From NCBI RefSeq assembly GCF_055900595.2, contig NZ_CM148325.1: a stretch of DNA of 64,000 nt, one strand, 5' to 3'. Of the stretch, positions 2,465 through 50,130 are shown piece by piece; within the stretch, counting starts at the first letter, position 1, and the number at the start of each line of letters is the position of its first letter. Made by a program: the position numbers and the translations under genes. The notes below the pieces were generated by a model that was given only the letters and a program-made list of their open reading frames with translations, did not search any database and was not told the origin of the DNA.

Positions 2465-2503
2465 ATAAAAAAGCCCCCGGAAGGTGATCTTCCGGGGGCT
2501 TTC
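2465..2503 (-). terminator. his attenuator terminator (Rho-independent hairpin plus U-run)
   Basis: Minus strand reads GAAAGCCCCCGGAAGATCACCTTCCGGGGGCTTTTTT between hisL and hisG. Confidence 0.9.
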
Positions 2504-2563
2504 TCATGCGTTCATGCACCACTGGAAGATCTGAATGTCTTCCAGCACACATCGCCTGAAAGA

Positions 2564-2614
2564 CTAGTCAGGATGATGGTGATGATGGTGGTGTTTAAAT
2601 TGAACGCGTGTCAT
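2564..2614 (-). CDS. hisL: his operon leader peptide
   Basis: Minus strand ATGACACGCGTTCAATTTAAACACCACCATCATCACCATCATCCTGACTAG = MTRVQFKHHHHHHHPD, seven consecutive His codons. Confidence 0.95.
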   Translation of the reverse strand: MTRVQFKHHHHHHHPD

Positions 2615-4838: not shown

Positions 4839-5104
4839 AGAAAAATTATTATGACAAGCCTCTCATTCTCTTGTCATTTCCCCCCCATTTAGGCACAATG
4901 CGCCGCTGTCAAAAAATGACTAAAAACCGACGTTTCATCAGCGTCGGTTATTTTTTGCTTCAAACCAATCATTCATACCAAGAGGCCGGGCTTCGTACCG
5001 GATAGATATTTACTAAAAATCGACAGTTGTTGTCGCTGAGGAATCCAAAAAAATGGGGCAATTTTTTGCTTACGCGACGGTTATCACCGTAAAGGAGAAT
5101 GACC

Positions 5105-7983: not shown

Positions 7984-9411
7984 TTAGACGATCTCTTCCG
8001 CGTACTGCCAAAGCGCTTTTAACAGTGCCACTTTCTCTTTGTCATCGGCATATTGTTGTGCCAGCATCTGCAATTCATCTGCATAACCCTGTAAAAACTC
8101 TGGCGTGAAGACCTGGCGGCGGTGCTCCAGCCAGCGTTGCTGCTCGGCATAATCCAGCGTCCCCGGGAAGTTGCGCGCCCGATAATTGAACAACAGCTTT
8201 TCAATCCGTTTATCGACAAAAGTGATATCCAGTGCCGGTAAATTACGCGGCTCGGTTTCCAGCACAATTTTCATTGCTGCACGATCGGCGTCACTGAAAA
8301 AGCCGTTATAAAGCTGTGCATCCACGTTATCTGAAGGCGTAAACGGTTCGGCTTCCGCGAATATCGCCACCACTTTTTCGCGCACTTGCGGATTTTCACG
8401 CAGAATTTTCAGGTTATTGAGGCAATGCTGACGATTAATTCCCAGTCGGTCGGCATCTTCCGGGCGTAGCGTATTCGCCTGGGCCAGCACCGGACATTTA
8501 TTGATATGCACCAGCTTAACCGGAACGGCGGCGTTATCGCCAAGATCGGTTTTTGCGGTATATAAACGCTCGCGCAATGTGTCGCTATCCAGTTCCAGTA
8601 ATGGCGAAATGTCTCCTGCCAAATCCACCATAATTACGGCATTGCGATTTTCAGGATGCCACGCCAGCGGTGCCACCCAGCTGGTATTGCCGCGCCATGC
8701 CCCAAACATTCCGGAAACGTGCACCAGGGGTTTCATCTGCGGAACATCAATCAACGCCATCAGTTTGTGTTTATTACGATGGGTAAAGAGATATTCAAAC
8801 AGGCGTGGCTGACGCGTTTTTACCAGTTTCGCCATCGCAATAGTGGCGTACACATCAGCCATCGCATCGTGGGCGTTGCTATGTTCAATTCCATTCGCTT
8901 TGGTTAAATGCTCAAGGCGAAAGCTCGGTAGACCGTCATCATTTTCAGGCCAGTTTATTCCTTCCGGGCGCAGGGCATAACAGGCACGCATAACATCCAG
9001 TAAATCCCAGCGCGAGTTATCATGCTGCCAGCTCCAGGCGTAAGGATCGTAGAAATTACGATAAAAAACGTTGCGTGTGACTTCGTCGTCGAAACGCACA
9101 TTGTTGTAGCCCAGAATACAGGTCTTCGGTACGTTAAAAAGCGAGTGAATACGGGCGGCAAACGCGGCTTCGTTTTCTCCTTTCGCCCGTGCTTCCTGCG
9201 GGGTAATACCGGTAATTAATACTGCTCCAGGCTGGGGCAAATAGTCATCCGCGGGCTTGCAGTAAAAGACTTCGGGTTCGCCGATGACATTGAATTCGCT
9301 ATCGGTGCGAATGGCTGCGAACTGTGCAGGGCGATCTAACGCGGGGTGCGTGCCAAAGGTTTCGTAATCGTGAAACAAAAAGGTAGATTGTTGCTTACCG
9401 TCATTCATCAT
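7984..9411 (-). CDS. sbcB: Exodeoxyribonuclease I
   Basis: Translation MMNDGKQQSTFLFHDYETFGTHPALDRPAQFAAIRTD... (475 aa, DEDDh exonuclease); ORF-track start at 9483 is an extension. Confidence 0.95.
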   Translation of the reverse strand: MMNDGKQQSTFLFHDYETFGTHPALDRPAQFAAIRTDSEFNVIGEPEVFYCKPADDYLPQPGAVLITGITPQEARAKGENEAAFAARIHSLFNVPKTCILGYNNVRFDDEVTRNVFYRNFYDPYAWSWQHDNSRWDLLDVMRACYALRPEGINWPENDDGLPSFRLEHLTKANGIEHSNAHDAMADVYATIAMAKLVKTRQPRLFEYLFTHRNKHKLMALIDVPQMKPLVHVSGMFGAWRGNTSWVAPLAWHPENRNAVIMVDLAGDISPLLELDSDTLRERLYTAKTDLGDNAAVPVKLVHINKCPVLAQANTLRPEDADRLGINRQHCLNNLKILRENPQVREKVVAIFAEAEPFTPSDNVDAQLYNGFFSDADRAAMKIVLETEPRNLPALDITFVDKRIEKLLFNYRARNFPGTLDYAEQQRWLEHRRQVFTPEFLQGYADELQMLAQQYADDKEKVALLKALWQYAEEIV

Positions 9412-32500: not shown

Positions 32501-33118
32501 TCAACTGTGAGCGGCATCAACCGATGTACGGTATGCCATAAGCACGTACTGATCCATCAGATTTGTCAGTGGTTCACTCTGACCCTGACGTGCAATGATC
32601 CATTGCTCCAGATCTTTTTCTGATTTGTGTTTCAGGTTTTTCGTCCAGTCGTCAAGGCTGTTTCCGGTCATTAAGTCAAGCCAGCAGAGCCAGACCAGTT
32701 TGAGACGTAACTCCGTGCCGCCAAACTGACGGAAGAGGCTGATCAGTTTGTTTGCCAGAGAATGTTGCTTCAGGCGCTCACATTCAGACAGCAGGATCCC
32801 TTCCAGCATCGGATGATGAACCAGCAGGTGTTCGCTGGTGCATAAATTCACCACCAGATCATCATCCAGGGACGGGGAGCTCCGTTTGTCCGGACCATAA
32901 ATCAGCCGGTGCAGACTCTGGGGAACGATGGCAATCTCCGGTTTTTCGCCATTGAATGACACCCACCCGGGCGTCAGATTATGGAAATAGTAGATATTCG
33001 GATGACACACGCCCCATGATACGGCGTGCCGGGTGAAGCCGGTCAGCCATTTCTGGTAGTTTTCATGGAGCAGCTCGTAACGGGTCTGATACTGTTGTTT
33101 CATTTTCATATTCCTCAC
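32501..33118 (-). CDS. Hypothetical island protein (205 aa)
   Basis: ORF MRNMKMKQQYQTRYELLHENYQKWLTGF... downstream of alpA-like gene on the same strand. Confidence 0.5.
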   Translation of the reverse strand: MRNMKMKQQYQTRYELLHENYQKWLTGFTRHAVSWGVCHPNIYYFHNLTPGWVSFNGEKPEIAIVPQSLHRLIYGPDKRSSPSLDDDLVVNLCTSEHLLVHHPMLEGILLSECERLKQHSLANKLISLFRQFGGTELRLKLVWLCWLDLMTGNSLDDWTKNLKHKSEKDLEQWIIARQGQSEPLTNLMDQYVLMAYRTSVDAAHS

Positions 33119-33196
33119 GGGGGATAACAGGCAGCAGAGCGCCGCCGGCAGGCCGGAGATTGCGTCTGCTGTGGGCGAAGGGTTAGTGGTTAAAAA

Positions 33197-33403
33197 TTAC
33201 GGACGGGACTGTGCAATACGCGCCTGCAGCCAGGCTTCCACTTCACTTTTCAGCCAGCGGGAGCTGCGCCCCATTTTGATGGGCGCAGGAAAGCCCCCAT
33301 CTTTGATGAGTTTGTCAAACCACTTATCGGTTAGGCCGGTCAGTTGAGTGATAAACGCCATGTCGACCATCTGGTCATCCATCAGCGAAACTGGGGTAGC
33401 CAT
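33197..33403 (-). CDS. alpA: AlpA-family prophage transcriptional regulator
   Basis: 68-aa core MATPVSLMDDQMVDMAFITQLTGLTDKWFDKLIKDGGFPAPIKMGRSSRWLKSEVEAWL; ORF-track start at 33604 is an extension. Confidence 0.75.
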   Translation of the reverse strand: MATPVSLMDDQMVDMAFITQLTGLTDKWFDKLIKDGGFPAPIKMGRSSRWLKSEVEAWLQARIAQSRP

Positions 33404-34529
33404 GAGAATGTTCCTCCGGATGTTGTTAAACCAGCCGGTGTGGTCATGAAAACAGCGCGCCACCTTCACCGGCATAACAACCGGGGAGAAACGTAAAAAA
33501 TAATCGGGAATGCGGCTGTCCGGAGATAAACGGGGGGATTGCGATGGCAGAGCCGTAGCGGAATCCCGGAGGGGGGGGTTGCGAAAAGATGCTTCCGCAC
33601 GCACGCGCGATAAAGAGGGGATAGTTTTCGTGAGGACAGGGAGAGAAGCAGGCGTTCTGATAATTGCAGAGTTGTTTTCGGAGGTGGTTACAGTGAGTCA
33701 GCCCGTTCCTGGCGAGCAGGAGACTGATATCACCGATGGGATAAGGTTGTCTGATTGGTATTATAAATATAAGAAGTCATCAGAGAGTAACGTAAAGGAT
33801 TTGCCAGAATAACCTAAGAGAGTAAATCTCTCCGGTAACAGAGCGCTGTGAAGCATTCTGTATCAGAGTGCAGATACATGAACGCTGATGCGTAAAATCA
33901 GCAGTGACACGCCAGCTCCCCCTATGCCCATTCCTGTATAAGACATGAACTGAGTGTATTAATGCTTCTGCCCTGAGACTGAGCCGGTGAGTGAGGGGCT
34001 GAGAAATCCCTCTTGACACAGCTCTAACCAGAAATACTTCCCCGGTTGTTGCGGTGCGTCCGGATCCCCGATAACGGAACACTAAGGCTGTATTGCGGGA
34101 CACCGGGTAAGTAGCAGCCCGTAAGGCGTTCTGTCAACGCCAGAAAAAATGATTTCCCACACGCGTTATAGACTCACTCCTGTGGACCTGGAAGCCCGTA
34201 ACTCTGCGTTTGCCCACTGACTGACGGAACTGACCGCAAATTTTACGAGTGCGTGCTGGGCTTCAGTCTGGTCACCTGAGCGTTCGGTAACGGAGGCGCG
34301 GGCGGTAATAGGCTGATTTTCAGGTATTACCGGCTTACAGCGTGTGGTTGATATTGAGGGGCTGTGAGTTTCGCGTATTTGTCAGAAACCCAGACGAGTT
34401 TTCCTGTATGGGACGAAATAAGGCAGCGGCAATACCTGGAAAAATTTAATATGGTATGAAGGAGAACCTGTCGGTTACGCTTAATATACCCGGTACACTG
34501 TCAGCTCAGGGGATACATGAACCGTTATC

Positions 34530-34733
34530 TCACCAGCTACACAGTATATACACACTGACGCTGACAGTAGTCAGCAGGACCACAATAATCAGTGCCAGCA
34601 GTATGGTAACGATACGGTCTGTATTCCGGTAATAGCCGAAGGGGTCGACAGAACCACAATACGGGCAACACACTGTATTATGAGTAATCGCGTTTCCACA
34701 GTCCCTGCACTTCTTTTTGCGTATCACCATCAC
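34530..34733 (-). CDS. Small zinc-ribbon protein with C-terminal TM anchor (67 aa)
   Basis: CRDCGNAITHNTVCCPYCGS followed by hydrophobic IVTILLALIIVVLLTTVSVSVYIL. Confidence 0.45.
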   Translation of the reverse strand: MMVIRKKKCRDCGNAITHNTVCCPYCGSVDPFGYYRNTDRIVTILLALIIVVLLTTVSVSVYILCSW

Positions 34734-34893
34734 TCCCTCCTCACAGCCTTACCCGTAACCGGTTTTTTACATTAAAAAACCAACGCTGAAAATTCAACCG
34801 TCAGTCCGGAGACGACCGTTCGGGTTATCACAGAGTGCCTGAGACAGTGTCCTGCCGGAGGTCACTTCAGGGACTCTGCGCATTTTTTACGAC

Positions 34894-35499
34894 GTGGCTA
34901 TTCCGTATGAACCATACGGAGATTTAACCATGACCTACAAATACAACCCCTTCTGGCAGCAACGTATTCGTGAGACGGTGCGGCACGCACTGAATGTTCA
35001 TCCCCGCCTGACGGCATTGCGGGTTGACCTGCGTTTCCCGGATGTACCGGCAGCAACGGACGCAGCTGTGATATCCCGCTTCATCAATGCCCTGAAAGCC
35101 CGAATCGACGCTTACCAGAAACGTAAGCATCGGGAAGGTAAACGCGTGCATCCCACAACCCTGCATTACGTCTGGGCCCGGGAGTTTGGGGAGTGCAAAG
35201 GTAAAAAACACTATCACCTGATGCTGCTGGTTAACCGGGATACCTGGTGTCGTGCCGGTGATTACCGTGCTCCGGGATCACTGGCCGGGATGATTAAACA
35301 GGCGTGGTGCAGTGCCCTGGGAGTGGATGTCGGGTGCCATGCCACACTGGTGCATTTTCCGGCCTGGCCGGCGGTGTGGCTGGAACGCGATGATGACACT
35401 GGCTTTCAGCAGGTGCTGGAACGTGCTGACTATCTGGCGAAGGAACATACCAAAGCTCACTGCACCGGTGAGCGCAATTTTGGCTGTAGCCGGAGTTGA
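34894..35499 (+). CDS. YagK/YfjJ-family (inovirus Gp2-like) protein
   Basis: 201-aa ORF ...MTYKYNPFWQQRIRETVRHALNVHPRLTALRVDLRFPDV...HYHLMLLVNRD... Confidence 0.6.
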   Translation: MAIPYEPYGDLTMTYKYNPFWQQRIRETVRHALNVHPRLTALRVDLRFPDVPAATDAAVISRFINALKARIDAYQKRKHREGKRVHPTTLHYVWAREFGECKGKKHYHLMLLVNRDTWCRAGDYRAPGSLAGMIKQAWCSALGVDVGCHATLVHFPAWPAVWLERDDDTGFQQVLERADYLAKEHTKAHCTGERNFGCSRS

Positions 35500-35752
35500 G
35501 CACGACTGGCGCGCCAATACCCGGCAAACCAAAAGTATGGGTTGTTGTCTGGCGGCAACGATGTATCCACTCGCCCACTGACTGTTTTTTACGTCAGTGT
35601 TCCATTGTGTGACAACCACAGTGCTGTAACAGCAACCAGCCTGCTTTACCCAAACTCCAGTCCAGATTTTAACTGAACCGCCATTCACACCCTGACCACG
35701 CTGCCCGTACCGGGACGGCTGTTGCCTGCGTGTCGTCTGGCGGCTGAGGAAT

Positions 35753-36160
35753 ATGACTATGTACGCAAAATCCTTTATCGCTCTTGATGGCAACGGACGT
35801 CTGACGGGCGCCCGTACTGCACAGGCCGCACCTTATGCTAACTACACCTGCCACTTGTGTGGCAGTGCACTCAGATACCATCCGCAATACGACACTGAAC
35901 TTCCCTGGTTTGAACACACTGACGACAGGCTGACAGAGCACGGTCAACAGTGCCCTTATGTCAGGCCGGAGCGCAGAGAAATACAGTTGATTAAACGTCT
36001 GCAGCAATTCGTACCGGATGCCTTACCCGTGGTGCGTAAAGCCAGCTGGCACTGCAGACAATGTCACCACGATTATTATGGGGAGCGGTACTGCACACAC
36101 TGCCAGACCGGAGGATTCAGTATTCCCCGGACAACTCAGGAGGAAATATGCGAATTCTGA
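35753..36160 (+). CDS. Zinc-ribbon protein (paralog 1)
   Basis: CHLCGS...PWFEH...QCPY and C-terminal CRQCHHDYYGERYCTHC. Confidence 0.55.
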   Translation: MTMYAKSFIALDGNGRLTGARTAQAAPYANYTCHLCGSALRYHPQYDTELPWFEHTDDRLTEHGQQCPYVRPERREIQLIKRLQQFVPDALPVVRKASWHCRQCHHDYYGERYCTHCQTGGFSIPRTTQEEICEF

Positions 36161-36555
36161 ACTGTTATATGGCGAATGACAGCAAAGGCCATTTTGTTAC
36201 GGCGAAAGAAGCAGCGAAGCACAACCGCCAGGACGTTTTGTGCTGTGTGTCCTGTGGATGCCCGTTAACACTTCAGCGGGGCAATGACGGACAACCACCG
36301 TGGTTTGAACATGACCAGATGACTGTCGCTGAGAAAATCCTGCTGCGATGCACCTGGCTTGACCCGGCAGAGAAAGAGGCCCGTCGTTTGCATCTGCAGG
36401 GTATGACGGTTCCGGATTATACGGTGAAGGTGAGAAAGTGGTTTTGTGTGATGTGTGACGAAAATTATGAGGGGGAAAAGTGCTGCCCGAGTTGTGGTAC
36501 CGGGGTATACAGCAGGGAGGGGGGGCAGGAGGGCAACTGGAAGGATAGGAACTGA
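36148..36555 (+). CDS. Zinc-ribbon protein (paralog 2)
   Basis: Same architecture: CVSCGC...PWFEH...CVMCDENYEGEKCCPSC; start overlaps the stop of paralog 1. Confidence 0.55.
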   Translation: MRILNCYMANDSKGHFVTAKEAAKHNRQDVLCCVSCGCPLTLQRGNDGQPPWFEHDQMTVAEKILLRCTWLDPAEKEARRLHLQGMTVPDYTVKVRKWFCVMCDENYEGEKCCPSCGTGVYSREGGQEGNWKDRN

Positions 36556-36838
36556 GCGGTTCAGTCGCGGAAATCAGTTGCAGAGCTGTAATGATATCTC
36601 CGGGAGTGCTGCGTTGGTAGGGGCATCCCGGGATAGAGAAATTTTAGCACTTTGCCCTGAATGATTGTAGACGTCCCGAGTACTCGTACCGGTCTGAGTT
36701 ATTACAGTTAGATATTCACTTTTTCTCCCGCATACTTCACATCTGTCAACGACGGATGAAAAGTGGTTCTTCCGCAACCTGGGTGGAAGAAAATGGATGA
36801 AACTTTCTGGCGAACAAGGATCTAAGCTGTTTTAAGTT

Positions 36839-38458
36839 ATGGGCAACGCAATGCACTCTCTTAAGACACTTCTACAGTTACCTTGCGGATGGCGATGCAG
36901 TCGACAAATTATTAGCTCTGACGGTATAACCCTCCATCTCCACGGAAAACGCAAAACAGCACAATGTCCTGAATGCTTTAAGCGTAGCGACTCTGTTCAT
37001 AGTTGTCGTCGGCGCCGGATACAGCATCTACCCTGCTCAGGGCAGACGCTATGGCTTGTATTTTCCGTCCGCCACTGGTACTGCCGTAACCCGGCTTGTT
37101 CACGTAAAATTTTTGCCGAGTCGCTTGCTCCCTTCGCCAGTTCACACCAGCAGTCTTCACAGGCGTTACAAAATTAACAACGTCAACTGGGATTAATAGC
37201 TGGAGGTGAGGCTGGAAAACGGGCTGCAACGGCAGTGGGTCTCCGTTGCAGTGCTGATACTCTTCTTCGCAGGCTTATCAATACCCCGGAGACGAAACAG
37301 TCAGGCGCGCCTCATGTCGGTATTGATGAGTGGGCGTGGCATCGGGGCCACTGCTGCGGTATGTTAATAGTCAATCCTGATACTCACCGTCCCCTCGTCC
37401 TGCTTCCCGGCCGTGATCAGCGTACGCTGGCGACCTGGTTCAGAAAATATCCGGAAATACAGGTTGTCTCGCGTGATCGCAGTGGAGTCTATGCGACAGC
37501 AGCACGTGAAGGTGCACCTCAGGCCAGACAGGTGGCCGATCGATGGCACCTGCTAAAAAATATTGGTGATGAGCCTGAACGAATGATGTACAGATATATG
37601 CCTCTGATACGTCTTGTTGTCAGAGAGTTATCACTGAAGAAATCACCTGAGCCAGAAATATCTGTGCCTGTAGCATCGCTCCGTCGTCTGGAACGCCTTA
37701 AACAGCACATCCGCAAAAAACGGCATCAGCGTTGGACAGAGGTTATGGCCCTGCATAACAAGGGATGTAGTTTCAGGGAAATATCCCGTATTACAGGCCT
37801 GTCGCGAGTGACAGTCAGTCGCTGGGTGGGTTCAGGAACATTCCCTGAAATGTCAACTAGGCCTCCAAAGCGAGGGCTTCTGGACCCATGGAGGGAGTGG
37901 TTAAAAGAGCAACGAGAATGTGGTAATTATAACTCCGGCCGGATATGGCGGGAAATGGTGGCCAGGGGGGTTACAGGCAGTGAAACCATCGTCAGGGATG
38001 CTGTTGCCAAATGGCATAAAGGCTGGATCCCACCGGTTACTACTGCCGCAAGACTTCCTTCAGTGTCCCGGGTAAGCCGCTGGTTGATGCCCTGGAGAAT
38101 AATCAGGGGTGAAGAAAATTATGCTTTCCGATTTATTAGTCTGATGTGTGAAAAAGAACCGGAGTTGAAAATAGCGCAGCAACTGGTACTCGAGTTCTAC
38201 CGTATTCTGAAAACCTAAAATAAATCACAGCTAAGCAGCTGGTTCACTCGGGTCCACGAAAGCGGCTCAGCAGAACTTCGGTGCGTAGCTGCGGGGATGG
38301 AAGCTGATGCTGCGGCTATATGTGAGGCAATCAGCAGTCGCTGGAGTACTGGTGTTGTCGAAGGTCATGTAAATCGCCTGAAGGTGCTGATACGCCAGAT
38401 GTATGGTCGAGCCGGACTTGAACTACTTAGGCGGAGGGTAATGAGTCCACTGGCATGA
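36839..38458 (+). pseudogene. ISL3-family transposase, disrupted by frameshifts (three ORF pieces)
   Basis: N-terminal zinc-finger piece (36839-37177), core (37235-38218) and C-terminal tail ...EGHVNRLKVLIRQMYGRAGLELLRRRVM in a third frame. Confidence 0.75.
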
Positions 38459-45822: not shown

Positions 45823-45898
45823 TGGCTCCTCTGACTGGACTCGAACCAGTGACATACGGATTAACAGTCCGCCGTTCTACCGACTGAACTACAGAGGA
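45823..45898 (-). tRNA. asnV: tRNA-Asn (GUU)
   Basis: 76-nt minus-strand TCCTCTGTAGTTCAGTCGGTAGAACGGCGGACTGTTAATCCGTATGTCACTGGTTCGAGTCCAGTCAGAGGAGCCA; locus name from position between ldtA and nac. Confidence 0.95.
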
Positions 45899-48230: not shown

Positions 48231-48306
48231 TGGCTCCTCTGACTGGACTCGAACCAGTGACATACGGATTAACAGTCCGCCGTTCTACCGACTGAACTAC
48301 AGAGGA
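48231..48306 (-). tRNA. asnU: tRNA-Asn (GUU)
   Basis: Identical 76-nt tRNA-Asn sequence on the minus strand; locus name from position between cbl and yeeO. Confidence 0.95.
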
Positions 48307-50054: not shown

Positions 50055-50130
50055 TCCTCTGTAGTTCAGTCGGTAGAACGGCGGACTGTTAATCCGTATG
50101 TCACTGGTTCGAGTCCAGTCAGAGGAGCCA
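50055..50130 (+). tRNA. asnW: tRNA-Asn (GUU)
   Basis: 76-nt plus-strand tRNA-Asn with GTT anticodon; locus name from position between yeeO and yeeN. Confidence 0.95.

Follow-up and report, generated by a model that had tools for sequence, protein, structure and literature searches.

We describe a pair of overlapping plus-strand genes, denoted ZnA and ZnB, in a 64,000-nt stretch of contig NZ_CM148325.1 (NCBI RefSeq assembly GCF_055900595.2), referred to below as the window. The two genes encode paralogous small proteins, each composed of a DUF7828 domain and a Zn_ribbon_11 domain, and both are under purifying selection. Genes of this family occupy the last position in a gene order, HUH Rep-like, AlpA, zinc-ribbon protein, that is fixed across six families of Enterobacterales. 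Tentatively, with somewhat less than even confidence, we propose that ZnA and ZnB are zinc-dependent, nucleic acid-binding accessory proteins or regulators of the excision/replication switch of the genomic islands that carry them.

The ZnA and ZnB genes

The window is chromosomal DNA of E. coli. Its segment 34400-36700 is 100% identical to strain M160133, in which the Prokaryotic Genome Annotation Pipeline (PGAP) annotates five features: a minus-strand gene for a 66-aa hypothetical protein, an 'inovirus Gp2 family protein', WP_000270974.1, WP_001221623.1, and an ISL3 transposase pseudogene. WP_000270974.1 ('putative zinc ribbon protein' in RefSeq) is the 133-aa product of ZnA (35759..36160, plus strand), and WP_001221623.1 ('zinc-ribbon domain-containing protein') is the 135-aa product of ZnB (36148..36555, plus strand). 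The original prediction, made from the DNA letters and a list of open reading frames (ORFs), gave the first gene as 35753-36160. Its strand and its end stand, whereas its start has to be moved two codons downstream, to the ATG at 35759, because all orthologs start with MYAKSF, the homology upstream of this position is non-coding, the placement of the Shine-Dalgarno sequence (GAGGAA/AAGGAG, 7-10 nt ahead of this ATG) fits, and PGAP agrees. The second gene was placed at 36148-36555 on the plus strand, exactly as PGAP annotates it.

As had been noticed, the second gene begins inside the stop region of the first. The overlap is 13 nt long (36148..36160, plus strand; ATGCGAATTCTGA), with the ATG of ZnB lying within the final codons of ZnA and GGAGG located 5 nt upstream of that ATG. 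The ATGCGnnTnCTGA junction was found again in 8 further loci, one of them a pseudogenised copy, which come from Salmonella, Mixta, Hafnia, Tenebrionibacter, Superficieibacter, Siccibacter, an Enterobacteriaceae metagenome-assembled genome (MAG), and a Klebsiella plasmid. Given that the 13-nt junction is conserved across genera, the overlap suggests translational coupling of ZnA and ZnB. In the type strain of Salmonella enterica subsp. diarizonae (locus L004 of those fetched for comparison, 8408-8806), ZnB is interrupted by an in-frame stop (between WFEHDT and TVARD), with ZnA and the 13-nt junction intact; degraded copies are present at loci L012 and L014.

Domain architecture, conserved residues and selection

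The two proteins were originally proposed to be tandem paralogs, to be checked by pairwise alignment; in a BLASTP comparison, they are 31% identical across 118 residues (E 3e-15), far above chance. Both are full-length members of two Pfam families that carry no functional annotation, and identical proteins are present in RefSeq. DUF7828 (PF25165) matches ZnA with an E value of 2.8e-31 (residues 2-87; positions 1-87 of the 87-position model) and ZnB with 7.7e-31; Zn_ribbon_11 (PF11682, formerly DUF3279) matches ZnA with 1.3e-9 (residues 94-126) and ZnB with 7e-18. All 39 diverse full-length homologs compared are ~130 aa long and contain both domains, so ZnA and ZnB are not fragments; the possibility raised at the outset, that the ORFs are remnants of a larger gene, was rejected given this uniform two-domain layout.

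The layout first noticed in the two proteins, an N-terminal CxxC, a PWFEH motif, and a C-terminal ribbon, corresponds to invariant residues of the family. Across the 39 relatives (ZnA numbering), C31, C34, H53 (the His of PWFEH), C99, C102, C112, and C115 are invariant, and F51, E52, C65, W97, Y106, G108, G118, and S121 are nearly so. A motif scan of the loci picked up the ribbon, W-x-C-x2-C-x3-Y-x-G-x3-C-x2-C, in every member of the family and at no other place. Because the invariant residues define them, two putative metal sites can be delineated, an N-terminal Cys2-His-Cys site that includes PWFEH and a C-terminal Cys4 ribbon, both of which would bind zinc. In the AlphaFold2 (AF2) model of the ZnA monomer (predicted local distance difference test score, 87.6; predicted template modelling score [pTM], 0.58), two domains are predicted with confidence; the model comprises a small beta/alpha N-domain, a helix at residues 72-84, and a three-stranded ribbon.

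Pairwise ratios of nonsynonymous to synonymous substitution rates (dN/dS) are 0.08-0.22 for ZnA and 0.12-0.32 for ZnB, with synonymous sites near saturation. Thus, both genes are under purifying selection.

Domain-reduced variants are encoded at some loci (L015-L017, 8387-8620; L021, 1394-1642; L023, 4672-5004): certain genes in the ZnB position encode an N-domain only (77-82 aa, with a CoiA-style YFIH or HFIH), and one ZnA variant is devoid of the C-terminal ribbon. Because such split or reduced variants exist, DUF7828 and the ribbon behave as separable modules.

Resemblance to known zinc proteins

The N-domain is reminiscent of CoiA_N (PF25164): both contain a beta-hairpin, CxxC, ~18 residues, and an aromatic-F-x-H motif, which in the N-domain-only relatives mentioned above takes the form typical of CoiA itself. 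The relationship is statistically weak, and for neither of the two window proteins is the match significant: CoiA_N matches ZnB with an E value of only 0.35, 7 of the 39 family members at E<=0.1 (best, 1.3e-3), and 1 of 10 variants with 5.2e-4. The two groups also differ in that ZnA and ZnB have, in place of the first His, a Cys further downstream as their fourth ligand, and in that ZnA and ZnB end without the C-terminal region of CoiA. For CoiA, a nuclease that processes D-loops, the N-terminus has been described as a putative zinc finger (bioRxiv 10.1101/2024.02.06.579203). The PD-(D/E)XK nuclease domain of CoiA (PF06054) has no match in ZnA or ZnB, the 133-135 aa of which are wholly covered by DUF7828 and Zn_ribbon_11. 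A word-index search for an N-domain-only relative bridging DUF7828 and CoiA retrieved only near-identical proteins.

Ogr of phage P2 and Delta of P4 are small zinc-finger activators of late genes, and Delta is a tandem-duplicated Ogr. By analogy, ZnA and ZnB could be activators directed at RNA polymerase, either Ogr/Delta-like or Rpb9/TFIIS-like, that turn on the operons of the island once AlpA has triggered induction. In accord with such a role, these are small, apparently zinc-dependent, tandem-duplicated proteins, with the duplication at the level of genes, and they are encoded in P4-type integrating elements next to alpA, a homolog of P4 vis. Furthermore, they share with Rpb9 and TFIIS a succession of ribbon, ~40-residue linker, and ribbon, with similar spacing, and the family profile matches the RPB9 sequence from the PDB with a borderline E value of 0.008. 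However, that match is cysteine-driven, the N-module of ZnA and ZnB uses a His and contains extra strands and helices, and Foldseek retrieved RPB9 chains with a probability of 0.01 only; against the PDB, it found nothing at E < 1, and against AFDB50, family members only. Ogr and Delta do not resemble the pair in sequence or profile, the cysteine spacing and layout differ, and the zinc-protein genes lie in a Rep-AlpA operon. Neither Ogr_Delta (PF04606) nor RNA_POL_M_15KD/TFIIS_C nor the DksA/TraR family (zf-dskA_traR) is among the Pfam matches of ZnA and ZnB at E <= 10 or of the 39 members at E <= 0.1. We consider activation of RNA polymerase to be a rather unlikely function of the pair.

A fixed gene order behind a Rep-like protein and AlpA

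The original prediction had pointed to possible co-occurrence with alpA and yfjJ-like genes in other islands, and the loci fetched from other genera bear this out: genes of the family are always located behind a gene for an HUH Rep-like protein of the YagK/YfjJ type and usually also behind alpA. In the window, the operon begins with the former (annotated as 'inovirus Gp2 family' and hereafter Gp2; 34930..35499, plus strand). Its product matches YagK_YfjJ_C (E 1e-47) and REP_ORF2-G2P (E 5e-5) and contains an HUH motif (HYHLMLL) and a YxxK motif (YLAK) of the rolling-circle-initiator type that are conserved in 8 orthologs; the motif comparison also takes in a gene at L020, 9900-10466.

In Hafnia, Tenebrionibacter, Superficieibacter, Siccibacter, the Enterobacteriaceae MAG, and the Klebsiella IncFIB/HI1B plasmid, the order is Gp2, AlpA, a 44-aa ribbon ORF, the leader discussed below, ZnA, ZnB (with the 13-nt overlap), and a second Gp2, followed, on the annotated Klebsiella plasmid, by DUF2913. 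The DUF2913 slot is filled by a homolog of orf205 (see below) in Salmonella (L004) and by an ORF matching phrog_15786 in Hafnia (L006). In Salmonella, Mixta, and the window, Gp2 lies immediately 5' of the leader and the pair. The second Gp2 paralog, encoded 3' of ZnB, has lost both HUH and YxxK (ECKMVLL and VHVK, respectively) and is probably catalytically degenerate and inactive. The unannotated ~44-aa ORF between alpA and the leader (MEKRRRTQP..IP..W.CPRC.RQYCG..PCPVCF) is a stand-alone Zn_ribbon_11 motif found at L006 (7728-7859), L008 (7719-7850), and L020 (8729-8860), as well as at L007, L009-L011, L015-L017, L019, and L023, and is absent from the window; accordingly, three ribbon-bearing proteins are encoded in a row at those loci.

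A simpler arrangement, Gp2, AlpA, and a single ZnB-type gene followed by variable cargo, is found in Proteus, a Pectobacterium/Yersinia-type contig, and Edwardsiella. Distant lineages have one copy, and the tandem arrangement is seen in Enterobacteriaceae and in Yersinia, where the two genes are diverged and do not overlap. Because Proteus, the Pectobacterium/Yersinia-type contig, and Edwardsiella keep a single gene of the ZnB type, the duplication is taken to be lineage-specific, with ZnB, which resembles the single-copy genes, representing the ancestral type.

Several other genes accompany the operon. Across the divergent promoter from the single-copy operons, there are genes for a GTPase, DUF932, antirestriction, RadC, CbeA, and CbtA. 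The cargo located 3' of the zinc-protein gene includes defence or conflict systems: SMEK_N/CTD10 with MC6 and DUF2326 (L025, 8400-11320), an OLD-TOPRIM ATPase with a UvrD helicase, resembling Gabija (L029, 8641-11968), and McrB (L027, 14251-14489), the last preceded by a MarR-family regulator and two dehydrogenase-like genes. Beyond the cargo, the Proteus loci (L025 and L026) encode a P4-type integrase. A gene for a ~290-330-aa protein, divergent from the Gp2-AlpA-Zn operon (L006, 1563-2540; L023, 1719-2714; L025, 4511-5374), shows at some loci weak similarity to ribbon-helix-helix, RepB-RCR_reg, or RepA-regulator proteins, which is consistent with a control region like that of a rolling-circle replicon.

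Elements of this class have been described independently as encoding an integrase, an AlpA-like excisionase, an HUH rolling-circle initiator, and a 'moron' module of RadC/ArdB and CbtA/CbeA, often together with defence islands; this description, in a 2025 preprint, makes no mention of zinc-ribbon genes (PMC12458937). The same gene layout is found in orf39-45 of the SRL pathogenicity island (SRL PAI), with unnamed ORFs after the alpA homolog (PMC6980539), in the slot that ZnA and ZnB occupy. The window resembles these tRNA-integrating islands (CP4-44, SRL PAI, and those of the preprint) in having AlpA, the HUH Rep-like protein, and a block of RadC, antirestriction, and CbeA-CbtA genes, and differs from them in that its copy is rearranged and truncated.

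A conserved leader upstream of ZnA

Directly 5' of ZnA, a non-coding leader of ~74-77 nt (35672..35748, plus strand) ends just before the Shine-Dalgarno sequence. Between the window and loci from other genera, the leader is 81-92% identical; in the same comparisons, the synonymous sites of ZnA differ at 65-79%, and the adjoining upstream flank is ~30% identical. The leader has an invariant GGGACGG core. In its CCGGGACGGCT form, this core is present at 13 of the fetched loci, once at each, and more diverged ZnA loci retain the shorter core only. The leader is found once per locus, solely before ZnA-type genes, and not before the single-copy genes of distant lineages. Judging by this pattern of conservation, it is a strongly constrained element and a candidate operator, origin-like site, or RNA.

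Phage Mu Com is a zinc-finger translational activator. ZnA and ZnB might, in the manner of Com, bind RNA and control their own translation by recognising a hairpin in the leader and governing ribosome access to the ZnA-ZnB message. The leader is well positioned for such a mechanism, being constrained up to the Shine-Dalgarno sequence and confined to ZnA-type genes, and it can be folded into an imperfect hairpin closed by CCGCCA...TGGCGG, with 82% of the cells paired across loci compared with 27-38% in slid controls, the structure being derived from one aligned sequence. Nevertheless, covariation was no better than in shuffled alignments (5 pairs, a number reached by 82 of 500 shuffles), the z-scores of the minimum free energy were weak (-0.8 for the sense strand and -1.95), RNAalifold yielded essentially nothing, and the single-copy relatives are without such a leader. 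A Com-like translational autoregulator is very improbable. A search of Rfam produced no match to the leader even at E <= 1, and a scan of the region for sigma-70 promoters and terminators gave matches no commoner than in shuffled sequences and none in the leader.

Distribution of the family

The family is small: when 1.84 billion cluster representatives were searched exhaustively with a profile, just 239, including many fragments, reached E <= 0.001. The named family members all belong to Enterobacterales (Escherichia, Salmonella, Citrobacter, Klebsiella, Enterobacter, Serratia, Yersinia, Pectobacterium, Edwardsiella, Hafnia, Budvicia, Erwinia, Proteus, and Providencia). Conservation in other genomes, on which the original prediction depended, is extensive: 3826 of the 5426 complete E. 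coli genomes (~70%) carry at least one copy, with a median of 2 and a maximum of 7 per genome. CP4-44 of strain K-12 carries no copy, its counterpart (yeeH/yoeG/yoeH) showing no similarity to the pair. Contigs labelled as a Collinsella MAG (L002), a Bacillota MAG (L003), and Chryseobacterium sp. (L015) carry the module, with ZnA protein identities of 96%, 84%, and 46%, respectively; these labels probably reflect mis-binning or contamination.

The pair had been thought to reside in a prophage island. A tblastn search of 50,697 phage records found no relatives, and no PHROGs family matches; hence, we rejected the identification of these genes as prophage genes, and the host element is instead a genomic island with integrase, AlpA, and HUH Rep genes. 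Among plasmids, 33 of 72,556 records contain a family member, chiefly large Klebsiella plasmids.

This distribution bears on the possibility that ZnA and ZnB bind and block a host or phage protein involved in restriction, recombination, or the SOS response, serving in anti-defence or host takeover and being expressed, like the ArdB and RadC genes, early after the island moves. The islands do carry antirestriction, RadC-like, and CbtA/CbeA genes in a manner reminiscent of the leading regions of plasmids; the proteins are neutral in charge and have strongly conserved surface residues that are not ligands (W97, Y106, G108, G118, and S121); and a CoiA_N-like domain free of a nuclease could serve as a decoy. 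Yet the zinc-protein genes belong to the Rep-AlpA operon and are separated from the antirestriction module by the divergent promoter region, and their absence from phages and rarity on plasmids are unlike what is seen for typical anti-defence genes. PADLOC gave no match for ZnA and only a match at E 0.035, on the ribbon, for ZnB, and the identification of the pair as defence proteins was discarded. On balance, an anti-defence role is distinctly doubtful.

NCBIfam contains no curated family for the pair, and relatives are named 'Ybl85' or DUF3279 in UniProt and AFDB. The literature searched contains no mention of the Pfam names, of 'Ybl85', or of the RefSeq accessions, in agreement with the initial description of these proteins as uncharacterised. 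The families are nevertheless recognised by Pfam, named in RefSeq, and represented in thousands of genomes, and because they are already catalogued, the pair is not a new entity.

Surroundings of the window copy

In the window, alpA (33197..33403, minus strand) encodes an AlpA-family excision regulator and lies on the strand opposite to the pair; at other loci, it immediately precedes the pair and shares its strand. Next to it is orf205 (32501..33103, minus strand; open frame to 33118), a gene for a ~200-aa protein that at related loci is found alongside alpA or Gp2. No Pfam family matches orf205, and a relative with 31-47% identity occupies the slot annotated as DUF2913 family protein on the Klebsiella plasmid. 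Both alpA and orf205 are inverted in the window, facing away from Gp2-ZnA-ZnB, and are co-directional with these genes in Salmonella and Mixta. A pseudogene of an ISL3-family transposase (36839..38458, plus strand) ends the island ~280 nt past ZnB. The whole arrangement at 32501-38458 looks rearranged, with IS100 at the left and the ISL3 pseudogene after ZnB. Because alpA is inverted and the ISL3 element truncates the island just downstream, the copy of the pair in the window is an orphan.

To the left of the pair, at a distance of 16-18 kb, the annotation of the identical E. coli record shows yeeS, antirestriction, cbeA, a frameshifted cbtA, and yeeW, and three tRNA-Asn genes lie 9-14 kb to its right; the stretch examined around the window copy has no annotated integrase. 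Rfam matches in the window include the His operon leader (2465-2588, minus strand), the sRNA STnc240 (4884-4958, plus strand), and tRNA genes at 45826-45898, 48234-48306, and 50055-50127, annotated as tRNA-Asn in the same record. By these matches, the window corresponds to the his - yeeA - CP4-44 - cobUST - asn tRNA region of E. coli.

Such surroundings raise the question of whether the window copy, as opposed to the family, is a functionless relic in a decayed island that is kept by recent clonal descent. The inverted alpA, the insertion sequences on both sides of the segment, and the many pseudogenes among the neighbours are what would be expected of a relic, as are the 1032 records found at >=99% identity in a search with the 2.3-kb region, and decay of this kind has affected the pair elsewhere, in S. 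enterica subsp. diarizonae and at L012 and L014. Conversely, both reading frames of the window copy are intact, the Shine-Dalgarno sequence, the leader, and the overlap are all kept, and dN/dS is 0.1-0.3 across the family. That the copy is a mere relic seems quite improbable to us.

The original prediction also grouped the pair with a 67-aa protein encoded on the opposite strand (34530..34733, minus strand; 34530-34730 in PGAP, which gives 66 aa; WP_001297900.1). This protein is real: its CxxC-x10-CxxC ribbon is conserved, its hydrophobic tail, a C-terminal anchor, varies, and its relatives are mainly from E. coli, Shigella, and Salmonella. The notion of a cluster does not hold: no Pfam family matches this protein, it shares no family with ZnA and ZnB, and it is not found beside the pair at the loci from other genera (L002-L019).

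Proposed role and implications

Under the interpretation we favour, of an accessory factor or regulator of island excision and replication, ZnA and ZnB would be tandem duplicates of one small, non-enzymatic protein with two zinc modules: a DUF7828 domain with a Cys2-His-Cys finger distantly similar to CoiA_N, a short helical linker, and a Cys4 Zn_ribbon_11. Its gene takes third place in a conserved core operon, HUH Rep-like (YagK/YfjJ) - AlpA - Zn, and the home of this operon would be tRNA-integrating enterobacterial islands of the CP4-44 or SRL PAI type that also carry defence-island cargo. Translational coupling through the 13-nt overlap would fix the proportion of ZnA to ZnB, and the two proteins may act jointly, possibly as a heteromer. 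They could bind nucleic acid, recognising island DNA (an origin, an att site, or an operator), or control the expression of the island operons, and the leader before ZnA is the best candidate for their target or control site. A link to excision and replication is suggested by the company that the genes keep.

Several observations weigh against this interpretation. With an isoelectric point of about 7, ZnA and ZnB are near-neutral, and many DNA binders are basic. When the two proteins were fused through a linker as ZnA-(GGGGS)6-ZnB, AF2 gave a pTM of 0.44, compared with 0.58 for the monomer, the alignment being partly paired (10 true pairs plus anchored unpaired rows); a rigid ZnA-ZnB heterodimer thus received no support and was set aside. 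The similarity to CoiA_N is as weak as described above, the leader is confined to ZnA-type genes and shows neither covariation nor folding beyond the modest signals already given, and the literature searched holds no experiment or paper on these proteins.

A bolder version of the same proposal, which we regard as unlikely, is that the protein with DUF7828 and Zn_ribbon_11 is a third core component of excision and replication beside the HUH Rep-like protein and AlpA, for example, one that recognises the structure of origin or att DNA or acts as a switch protein. The 74-nt leader would then be its DNA or RNA target, and the duplication would have given rise to a heteromer specific to Enterobacteriaceae.

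The islands in question are present in most E. coli genomes, often in multiple copies, and their cargo includes virulence genes, antibiotic-resistance loci, and systems for defence against phages. The present analysis provides a clearer genomic address for a catalogued DUF family rather than a new kind of system. Being fixed in the Rep-AlpA operon and maintained by purifying selection, the gene could plausibly supply a missing part of the island mobility machinery, and together with the constrained leader, its fixed place in the operon makes it a reasonable, if not urgent, target. Once known, the role of ZnA and ZnB would help in understanding how pathogenicity and defence islands move and in predicting such movement.

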